A stretch of 4,627 nucleotides of DNA from a virus (taxonomy: Duplodnaviria > Heunggongvirae > Uroviricota > Caudoviricetes), in the IMG/VR virus record IMGVR_UViG_2711768014_000008. One strand, 5' to 3'. Both the position numbers and the translations under genes were made by a program. Positions 2,104-4,627 of the stretch are shown here, piece after piece; the first letter of the stretch is position 1; each line of letters opens with the position of its first letter. Below the pieces are notes generated by a model. It saw only the letters and a program-made list of their open reading frames with translations. It was not told where the DNA came from and did no database searches.

Positions 2104-2460
2104 ATGGAAATAAAACCAGAAGATGAGTTAAGCAATATCGTTTTATTTCCGGTAAAAGAGGATGACCCTCGTAATCAGGTTAATTTTCTTTATGAGCCAT
2201 CGGAAAGACCATATTGCCATCACGCCTCTGTACGGGTTGACGAAAAAGAGCGTCAGGTCCGCTGTAAAATCTGCGGTGCGGTTGTGGAGCCGTTTGACTG
2301 GATGCTCTCTGTGGCAAAAAGAGAAACCAGACTGGCAGATGATGTAAGGCTATTGCGCCAGGAGGAACAGGAAAGGCGGAGAAATATAGAAAAGCTGATA
2401 CAGATTGAGCGTAACGCGAAAGCGCGGATACGCAGGGCGACAAAATCCAGAACTGAATAA
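2104..2460 (+). CDS. Hypothetical small protein with Cys/His cluster (possible zinc ribbon) and basic coiled-coil-like C-terminus
   Basis: ATG 2104 preceded by AAGGAGAGGAG; 118 aa; stop TAA 2458-2460. Motif YCHHASVRVDEKERQVRCKICGAV. An in-frame alternative start at ATG 2047 overlaps the upstream stop (TGAATGA) and would give 137 aa. Confidence 0.7.
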   Translation: MEIKPEDELSNIVLFPVKEDDPRNQVNFLYEPSERPYCHHASVRVDEKERQVRCKICGAVVEPFDWMLSVAKRETRLADDVRLLRQEEQERRRNIEKLIQIERNAKARIRRATKSRTE

Positions 2461-2607
2461 TTAAATTTAGCACTGTTAAAAATTTAATCCTTAACCGGAG
2501 GGATTTCTGCACCCTCAAATCATCAGGAGACCACCCGAAAGGGCGGGGAGCAGTCACACATCTGTTTCCGATAGCCCCGTTCTAATGCTACACTCTTTGA
2601 TATTTTT

Positions 2608-3294
2608 ATGACCCCAATAAACATATTTATGACAGTTGCTGATTTCAAACGGCCCAAATTGGAGCTCCCAAACGGGGCAAACAAACTACTACTGCACTCT
2701 TGCTGTGCTCCATGTTCCGGTGAGGTGATGGAGGCGCTTCAGGCCTCGGGAATCGACTACACCATCTTTTTCTACAACCCGAACATTCATCCTCAGAAAG
2801 AGTATTTAATTCGTAAGGATGAGAATATTCGCTTTGCTGAACAACACGGCGTGCCGTTTATTGATGCTGATTACGACACAGACAACTGGTTTGAACGAGC
2901 CAAAGGAATGGAATGGGAGCCCGAACGAGGGATCCGTTGCACCATGTGTTTTGACATGCGTTTTGAGCGGACAGCGCTGTACGCCGCTGAAAATGGTTTC
3001 AGTGTGATCAGCAGTTCACTGGGCATTTCACGCTGGAAAAATATGCAGCAGGTTAACGACTGTGGGCGGCGAGCCGTCGCGCATTATCCGGGCATGGTGT
3101 ACTGGGATTATAACTGGCGCAAGCAGGGCGGCTCGTCCCGTATGATTGAAATCAGCAAGCGCGAAAAATTCTATCAGCAGGAATATTGTGGCTGTGTGTA
3201 TTCTCTGCGCGATACCAATCTACACCGCAAATCTCAGGGACGCCCTCTTATCAAAATTGGTCAACTCCACTACGGTAAAGAAGAGAAGGAGTGA
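2608..3294 (+). CDS. queH: QueH/DUF208-like protein (putative epoxyqueuosine reductase-type Fe-S enzyme)
   Basis: 228-aa ORF, stop TGA 3292-3294. Contains [11 protein letters not shown] (CCAPC encoded at 2701-2715), [14 protein letters not shown] and EYCGC, the cysteine and NPN pattern I associate with the DUF208/QueH family. No Shine-Dalgarno before ATG 2608 or the in-frame ATG 2629, so the start is uncertain. Confidence 0.8.
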
Positions 3295-3443
3295 TTTTAT
3301 GGGGCACCTTTCTGATTGATTTCATATTGGCGAGGTAAGTAGAATGACTGCGGGTGCTTGAGGCTATCTGCTTCAGGCATGAACACCAAAAGGCAGATAG
3401 AGAAAAGCCCCAGTTAACATTACGCGTCCGGCAAGACGCTTAA

Positions 3444-3693
3444 NNNNNNNNNNNNNNNNNNNNNNNNNNNNNNNNNNNNNNNNNNNNNNNNNNNNNNNNN
3501 NNNNNNNNNNNNNNNNNNNNNNNNNNNNNNNNNNNNNNNNNNNNNNNNNNNNNNNNNNNNNNNNNNNNNNNNNNNNNNNNNNNNNNNNNNNNNNNNNNNN
3601 NNNNNNNNNNNNNNNNNNNNNNNNNNNNNNNNNNNNNNNNNNNNNNNNNNNNNNNNNNNNNNNNNNNNNNNNNNNNNNNNNNNNNNNNNNNNN
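3444..3693. other. Run of 250 N (assembly gap or masked sequence)
   Basis: Read directly. Confidence 1.
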
Positions 3694-4215: not shown

Positions 4216-4569
4216 ATGGCACATATACAACTGGTCAAACAAACCTCTTCCGGATTACTTCTCCCGGCGACGCCGGAGAGTTGCGATTTTCTGCATCAAA
4301 TCAAAATAGGTGAGTGGATACACGCAGACTTTAAGCGTGTGTGTAACTACGCATTCCACAAGCGTTTTTTCAAACTCCTGCAACTGGGTTTCGATTACTG
4401 GACTCCGGTCGGTGGGGCGATCACGCCTCGCGAACGAAAACTGGTGTCCGGTTTCGTTGATTACCTGTGTGAATCAGTAGGCCGGGAACATACGCCAGCT
4501 CTGAGCGAAGCCGCAGAGCAATTGAGGTGTACTGGCAATAGCGGACACTACCATTTGTTCTTTTTTTAA
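4216..4569 (+). CDS. Hypothetical 117-aa phage protein (possibly a conserved nin-region family; not firmly recognised)
   Basis: ATG 4216 with GGAG 7 nt upstream, preferred over the track's TTG 4174. The stop TAA 4567-4569 is formed at the end of a T7 run (4561-4567), so the C-terminus may be artefactual. Confidence 0.65.
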   Translation: MAHIQLVKQTSSGLLLPATPESCDFLHQIKIGEWIHADFKRVCNYAFHKRFFKLLQLGFDYWTPVGGAITPRERKLVSGFVDYLCESVGREHTPALSEAAEQLRCTGNSGHYHLFFF

Positions 4570-4627
4570 GCAGCCATCTGATGATATTTTTCCCTGAAGG
4601 CTGCCGGGGAGATATTCCCCAGACGAG

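Follow-up and report, generated by a model that had tools for sequence, protein, structure and literature searches.

We analyzed a 4,627-nucleotide stretch of DNA from a Caudoviricetes virus (IMG/VR record IMGVR_UViG_2711768014_000008), referred to below as the window, and found an intact gene, queH, whose product is well supported by sequence comparison and structure modeling as a canonical and typical epoxyqueuosine reductase QueH. In our preferred reading, to which we give a probability of about 0.7, the gene is a stand-alone moron that was captured from an Enterobacteriaceae chromosome and lets lysogens convert epoxyqueuosine (oQ) to queuosine (Q) independently of cobalamin. That a lambdoid prophage supplies 18% of complete Escherichia coli genomes, and also Shigella sonnei, with a second epoxyqueuosine reductase, one that does not need B12, appears to be under-appreciated: the prophage gene shows strong purifying selection and an apparent promoter of its own, yet it is unnamed in phage resources.

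The full Q pathway has been established in E. coli, and QueH, which catalyzes the same reaction as QueG, is its non-orthologous replacement (PMC5372724). QueG is a cobalamin/[4Fe-4S] enzyme (PMC5175355), and the same paper, citing Frey et al. 1988, describes oQ reduction in E. coli and Salmonella as cobamide-dependent. E. coli does not synthesize the corrin ring and salvages cobinamide only (PMC6461909). With neither E. coli nor Shigella able to make a corrin ring and with QueG dependent on cobalamin, a prophage QueH would open a B12-independent route to Q. We propose that a lambdoid (Rac/Qin-like) temperate phage took queH, together with its extended -10 promoter and a leader devoid of a Shine-Dalgarno (SD) sequence, from an Enterobacteriaceae chromosome, and that the gene came to occupy a cargo site in the early-right region, after a DUF977/Ren-like gene and before a hok/sok or a restriction-modification module. 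There the enzyme would work alone on the host's oQ-tRNA, supplied by the host Tgt and QueA, and would reduce oQ34 to Q34 on tRNA-Asp, -Asn, -His, and -Tyr with an Fe-S center and without cobalamin, so that lysogens would gain a parallel B12-independent route to complete Q. We infer activity in vivo, expression from the gene's own promoter in lysogens, and a fitness benefit under scarce B12.

Enzyme Identity and Start Codon

The gene had been singled out in an earlier model-made note on this DNA (the sequence-only reading), which described an open reading frame (ORF) of 228 amino acids at 2608-3294 and assigned it to the QueH/DUF208 enzymes by its motifs. The intact ORF is present on the plus strand as described, all four quoted motifs (EYCGC among them) included, and the assignment was borne out by profile and structure comparisons. 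The protein matched the Pfam family PF02677 (QueH) over profile positions 1-174 of 175 with 220.6 bits (E=1.9e-65; cut-off 23.5 bits). An NCBIfam scan of the protein gave no match, which is uninformative because the Prokaryotic Genome Annotation Pipeline (PGAP) names the protein QueH regardless. In a sequence search of the Protein Data Bank (PDB), the only significant matches were entries of Thermotoga maritima QueH, with 7lc5 aligning at about 30% identity (E=5.3e-22; query residues 27-203 against chain residues 4-178). An AlphaFold2 model built from 34 homologues was of moderate confidence, with a predicted local distance difference test (pLDDT) score of 73.7 and a predicted template modeling (pTM) score of 0.74. 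In a Foldseek search of the PDB with this model, ranks 1-5 were all T. maritima QueH (E 3.4e-10 to 1.8e-8; template modeling scores of 0.75-0.79 normalized to target length), and the next matches were distant PP-loop/AANH enzymes (TtuA, LarE) at E>=2.7e-5.

To assess residue conservation, we aligned 41 full-length 50%-identity cluster representatives with the query and the Thermotoga enzyme and considered a column conserved at >=85%. Of the 34 columns conserved by this measure, the window protein matches the consensus in all 34, its seven cysteines included, and the Thermotoga enzyme in 29. Among the 41 representatives, the columns of C25, C26, C29, C104, C107, C187, and C189 are 98-100% conserved; other conserved residues kept in the window protein are H23, N50, N52, P55, E58, Y59, R62, W87, E99, R103, K137, and Q184. 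The homology with T. maritima QueH (7lc5, 7lc7, 9deu; PF02677 / IPR003828, formerly DUF208) extends over the whole length, with the same predicted fold and with the cysteines of the CC..., RCxxC, and YCGC motifs all found in the window protein, which differs in extending ~20 residues further at each end, in an insertion of 3 residues that follows the first motif, and in having Cys29 in place of the Asp13 that follows CCAP in the Thermotoga enzyme. The sequence-only reading had pointed to the cluster-ligating Cys, Asp, and His; the cysteines are conserved, while the Asp is replaced according to the family norm, with Cys at this position in 109 of 113 family representatives and Asp in 3 (CCxPC is present in 109 of the 113). 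The PDB contains C9S and D13N mutant structures of Thermotoga QueH, so Cys9 and Asp13 are positions that structural biologists probed, and we take these Cys and Asp residues to be metal ligands. A QueH enzyme would be expected to bind a [4Fe-4S] cluster with a second metal next to it. Other QueH genes are reported to complement an E. coli queG mutant (Zallot et al. 2017).

The sequence comparisons make ATG 2629 the most likely true start of queH, rather than the ATG at 2608 that the sequence-only reading had taken. It is the conserved start, as PGAP uses it (giving 221 amino acids) in every E. coli record examined, it matches the N-termini of chromosomal queH orthologues in the alignment, and ATG 2608 is changed to ATT in the copy of strain A10. 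The upstream ATG is not present in the chromosomal orthologues, and nucleotide homology with the Erwinia gene begins no earlier than window position 2617.

Distribution, Selection, and Probable Chromosomal Origin

A queH coding sequence was found in 995 of 5,426 complete E. coli genomes (18%), with 985 of the 995 copies near full length, and all the E. coli records listed have 'epoxyqueuosine reductase QueH' as the name assigned by PGAP. As queG is present in 5,426 of 5,426 genomes, QueH is in E. coli always an addition to QueG and never its replacement. The two enzymes share reaction, substrate, and cell, but QueG has an unrelated fold and cofactor, with cobalamin needed (PMC5175355), and belongs to the core genome, whereas QueH is accessory and prophage-borne. 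RefSeq lists the exact 221-amino-acid protein as 'MULTISPECIES: epoxyqueuosine reductase QueH [Enterobacteriaceae]', and at least 1000 contigs encode it, with Shigella sonnei Ss046 and S. boydii represented among them. Since the family, the reaction, and the RefSeq name of the exact protein are already in databases, the identification of the gene is public and adds nothing new; that a prophage carries it, with what is likely a promoter, is of modest interest and does not amount to a new kind of biology.

Pairwise ratios of nonsynonymous to synonymous substitution rates (dN/dS) among prophage queH copies were 0.025-0.054 with dS reaching 0.45, indicating long residence under strong purifying selection.

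Among viral records, the protein is encoded on 189 IMG/VR contigs. The isolated and viable Escherichia phage HannyBb has queH at the same place (97.7% amino acid identity; annotated 'hypothetical protein') and is the only credible phage carrier in a collection of 50,697 phage records. The sequence-only reading had called the gene no routine cargo, which is true of verified phages, where it is rare, but not of E. coli, where it is common. We rejected a 49.6-kb 'Bacteriophage sp.' contig (MT835504.1, our locus L176) as a phage carrier: with ABC transporters, argH, argC, and topA (topoisomerase I), it is a bacterial chromosome by gene content. We assume that the remaining unverified virome fragments, as well as the QueH records labeled 'Acinetobacter phage' (330-380 kb), are bacterial likewise, and counts of 'phage' QueH from the phage collection would be inflated by such contigs. 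The gene's phage family in PHROG, phrog_3217, is labeled 'unknown function'; its 188-position profile starts at Met34 and lacks the CCAPC motif, and many phage gene calls of this family are probably N-terminally truncated. A survey of Q-pathway genes in viruses did not report QueA, QueG, or QueH (PMC6884629). Our search of the literature on QueH or DUF208 with phage or prophage found no paper on phage-borne QueH.

The closest nonphage relatives are chromosomal, in Scandinavium (92% identity), Kluyvera (91%), and Enterobacter (89-90%), and more distant chromosomal QueH proteins were found in Erwinia (86%; gene next to purL) and Providencia (84%; next to tmcA). The sequence-only statement that enterobacteria use QueG for this step is correct for E. 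coli but, given the chromosomal QueH of these genera, not for the order as a whole. In Enterobacterales, the chromosomal protein is near-identical to that of the window, with the same length and N-terminus, and its gene has the same extended -10 element ~43 nt upstream, the nearest relatives also having the same SD-poor leader. What differs is the surroundings: purL/glrK, tmcA, SDR, DeoR, GH28 hydrolase, or LysR genes around the chromosomal copies and a lambdoid prophage in a queG-bearing genome around the window gene. Among 80 species representatives, a phage context was found in E. albertii only. The purL/glrK (Erwinia) and tmcA (Providencia) contexts are not common to the other 80 species loci, suggesting that queH is mobile even within chromosomes.

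Probable Promoter and Leader

From the sequence, a queH transcript start is predicted near 2601, and an extended -10 element, TGCTACACT, lies upstream of the gene (Table 1). To study its conservation, we considered loci with the pattern TGnTAnnnT anywhere in the 70 nt upstream of queH, sampled from many genera with otherwise unrelated flanks. In 18 of 20 nonphage queH loci bearing the motif, it is placed 40-49 nt before the ATG, a statistically significant enrichment of position (P=7e-13; P=2e-8 with one locus per genus), and the prophage copies have it at -40 to -49 too. Most E. coli prophage matches start at query base 98, that is, at window position 2558. The shared position of TGCTACACT and the start of the matches at 2558 suggest that the mobile unit consists of promoter, leader, and coding sequence, and we infer from these patterns that queH probably has a promoter of its own. 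The putative -35 hexamer, TTCCGA, matches TTGACA at three of six positions.

No SD sequence precedes queH, as the sequence-only reading had noted; the nearest chromosomal relatives also lack one, so this absence appears ancestral and not a peculiarity of the phage. The same reading had placed the gene behind a hairpin-rich leader, a description that we rejected. The predicted fold of 2461-2640 is not unusually stable (z=-1.65; among 200 shuffled sequences, 13 gave a fold of equal or greater stability), and the only repeat in the leader is an AT-rich 9-nt inverted repeat at 2460-2488.

Prophage Setting

The best E. coli match, at 99.9% identity, lies in a ~43-kb lambdoid prophage between ybhA and pgl (our locus L001). 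Its genes are ordered as integrase ... cI-like, cro, ydaT, O-like, ydaV (DnaC-like), DUF977 (Ren-like), a 118-amino-acid zinc-ribbon protein, QueH, hokD, a 95-amino-acid ORF, DUF1367, DUF1364, DUF1133, four tRNA genes, lysis genes, head and tail genes, and ipaH. The queH gene has the orientation of the early-right operon and is located between the replication genes and the Q antiterminator. Across this complete prophage, none of the PGAP names corresponds to tgt, dpdA, queC/D/E/F, or folE, and a Pfam scan of its unnamed ORFs gave no match to TGT, QueC, QueD, QueE, or FolE. The sequence-only reading, seeing no TGT/DpdA, QueC/D/E, or FolE partner in the window, had left the masked neighboring sequence open to such genes; the unmasked flanks of the complete prophage agree with its first impression. 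These observations support the conclusion that the QueH gene has no pathway partners in its lambdoid prophage and that its simplest role concerns the queuosine status of host tRNA. The four tRNA genes (L001 23423-23733, before the lysis cassette) have the anticodons CAT, TCT, TGT, and TCC, and none is a Q-tRNA by anticodon.

Among 80 IMG/VR prophage loci, the upstream neighbor of queH is DUF977 in 64 and the zinc-ribbon ORF in 12, and the downstream neighbor is hokD in 65 and a Dcm methylase with an NgoMIV-type endonuclease in 13. The gene occupies a fixed cargo site with a variable neighbor. It resembles in this the lambdoid morons bor, lom, hok/sok, and the prophage restriction-modification systems, which likewise are single bacterial genes at a variable early/nin site, and also in having its own promoter-like element and being maintained in lysogens. 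It differs from them in that the cargo is a tRNA-modification enzyme duplicating a host function and not a surface, toxin, or defense protein.

In the window, the prophage segment 106-4522 lies between two copies of the insertion sequence IS600, which truncate an O/P-like replication gene at its left end and the DUF1367 gene at its right end (the match spans positions 1-102 of the 198 in the Pfam profile). Within this bracketed remnant, queH is intact.

Weighing of Alternative Explanations

Several results weigh against queH being a moron that is expressed in lysogens and useful to them. A strict two-hexamer sigma-70 promoter scan of 2300-3443 found none upstream of queH, with TGCTACACT falling below threshold and the hok promoter (3316-3345) being the sole match on the plus strand. 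A terminator scan of the same region found none and hence none between queH and the phage early operon. Given the failure of the strict promoter scan and the lack of a separating terminator, expression of queH could be mainly lytic. The structure model, at a pLDDT of 73.7, is of moderate confidence only. The gut usually has corrinoids, so B12 limitation may be infrequent, and we know of no phenotypic difference between oQ and Q. Finally, the prophage genes have no special NAU/NAC bias: among codons for Asn, Asp, His, and Tyr, the fraction ending in U is 0.54 in the early and late prophage genes and 0.565 in host genes.

If expression were mainly lytic, QueH could serve the phage itself, delayed-early transcription after induction topping up Q for the translation of late proteins. 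The placement of queH in the early-right operon, in the same orientation and between the replication genes and the Q antiterminator, is what this explanation would predict, as are the lack of a terminator both upstream and downstream of the gene and its presence at that place in the isolated phage HannyBb. We nevertheless consider it unlikely: the host-like NAU fraction offers no sign of a special demand, queH has a conserved promoter-like element of its own and has stayed intact in an IS600-cut remnant devoid of the upstream operon, and a short lytic cycle would leave little time for tRNA remodeling. At the other extreme, queH might be a neutral passenger or a decaying remnant with no current function, given that it duplicates queG in every genome and that the window copy sits in a remnant cut by IS600 on both sides. 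The dN/dS of 0.025-0.054 over dS up to 0.45, the near-full length of 985 of 995 E. coli copies, and the intactness of every catalytic-type residue make this highly improbable.

The remaining alternatives retain a function for the enzyme but change its purpose. The sequence-only reading had mentioned colicin E5 and 7-deazaguanine DNA modification, and we found no support for either idea. In the former, QueH would be a conflict gene, the conversion of oQ to Q altering the susceptibility of tRNAs to anticodon nucleases (colicin E5 or defense tRNases) or acting in other defense. The variable cargo site is common to hok/sok and to a Dcm methylase with an NgoMIV-type restriction system, and colicin E5 cuts the same tRNAs that are substrates of QueH; its cleavage, however, is not known to require Q. 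A PADLOC search of QueH and three neighbors matched no defense family at E<=1e-3, no partner gene co-varies with queH, and there is no sign of neofunctionalization, as the protein is indistinguishable from the housekeeping chromosomal QueH (34 of 34 columns; 89-92% identity). We regard this explanation as very unlikely. A part for QueH in 7-deazaguanine modification of phage DNA is barely credible. Phages do use enzymes of the Q/archaeosine pathway on DNA (PMC6884629), and the clusters concerned (DpdA with FolE/QueD/QueE/QueC, as in phage 9g) are, like queH, phage-borne genes of that pathway. These clusters act on DNA, however, and need a DpdA/TGT-type transglycosylase along with preQ0 genes, none of which is present in the complete prophage, and the published survey reports them without QueA, QueG, or QueH (PMC6884629); the present case is a single late-step tRNA enzyme without a transglycosylase. 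Epoxyqueuosine is not known to occur in DNA.

On genomic context only, one could go further and regard the prophage QueH as a selected conflict or virulence factor and not a simple back-up enzyme, an idea that we consider distinctly unlikely and that comes in three versions. Cobalamin-free Q formation, which would depend no longer on uptake by BtuB, a route that several phages and colicins exploit, may allow E. coli and Shigella to lose or repress B12 uptake without being left with oQ-stage tRNAs. Alternatively, QueH may tune the Q-dependent translation of virulence regulators, Shigella VirF for example, in intracellular niches where B12 is scarce, or it may alter the susceptibility of tRNAs to anticodon nucleases.

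The reading of queH as a captured moron with a B12-independent function thus remains the one that we prefer. If lysogens have an active enzyme, E. coli strains that differ in prophage content would also differ in the oQ/Q status of their tRNA when B12 is limiting, and the gene would offer a simple, testable case of a prophage altering the tRNA modification state of its host. Q is known to affect the expression of Shigella VirF (PMC1950534), to which the prophage queH may be relevant.

Coordinates and Further Features of the Window

Table 1. Features of the queH gene and its upstream segment (window coordinates; residues in the numbering of the 221-amino-acid protein)
Feature	Position	Strand	Remarks
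Upstream segment travelling with queH in prophages	2558..2628	+	Candidate promoter and A/U-rich leader without SD; left boundary of the conserved module at 2558
-35-like hexamer TTCCGA	2566..2571	+	Weak, putative; 17 nt upstream of the -10 hexamer
Extended -10 element TGCTACACT	2586..2594	+	TG at 2586-2587, hexamer TACACT at 2589-2594
In-frame upstream ATG	2608..2628	+	228-amino-acid reading, also used in the HannyBb annotation; probably 5' untranslated region
queH coding sequence, epoxyqueuosine reductase QueH	2629..3294	+	221 amino acids and stop; preferred start
HSCCAPCS motif	2695..2718	+	Cys25, Cys26, Cys29; Thermotoga Cys9, Cys10, Asp13 in the alignment to 7lc5
FFYNPNIHP motif	2767..2793	+	N50, N52, I53, P55 are conserved family columns
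RCTMC motif	2935..2949	+	Cys104, Cys107; Thermotoga Cys87, Cys90; columns 100% conserved
EYCGC motif	3181..3195	+	Cys187, Cys189; Thermotoga Cys169, Cys171; columns 100% conserved

Upstream of queH, the ORF at 2047-2460 (PGAP-equivalent start 2104) encodes a 118- to 137-amino-acid protein with two CxxC pairs and a basic coiled-coil tail. It has a weak match to the TFIIB zinc ribbon and belongs to PHROG 1621, 'unknown function'; as no more than 12 of 80 loci have it between DUF977 and queH, it appears to be an optional insert. Directly after queH, a hok/sok type I toxin-antitoxin module occupies 3316-3693 (L001 20892-21217), with a promoter-like site TTGATT-18-TAGAAT at 3316-3345 and an Rfam match to sok (117 bits) from about 3352.

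Two neighboring genes are masked in the window: the 3' part of ydaV (DnaC-like) at 1220-1607 and the hokD toxin gene at 3444-3693. The former mask is 74 nt longer and the latter 37 nt shorter than the counterparts in the 99.8-99.9% identical prophage L001; the difference would be explained by indels within ydaV and hok in the source or by masks that alter the length.

The O-like replication gene, at 80-782, is represented by two ORFs that do not share a frame (80-343 and 513-782), as compared with a single 262-amino-acid ORF in L001. An A8 run at ~312-319 and a (GAGGAA)3 repeat at 417-434 lie between these parts, and there are 12 gap positions relative to L001; by its sequence, the gene of the window may be a frameshifted pseudogene.

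The IS600 (IS3 family) ends that form the two ends of the window are both in minus orientation, 1-105 consisting of the orfA start and the left inverted repeat and 4523-4627 of the right inverted repeat and the orfB end. At the far end of the intact relative of this prophage lies the gene for ipaH, a type III secretion system effector (L173 8761-10587), the carriage of which suggests a host of the Shigella/enteroinvasive E. coli type.

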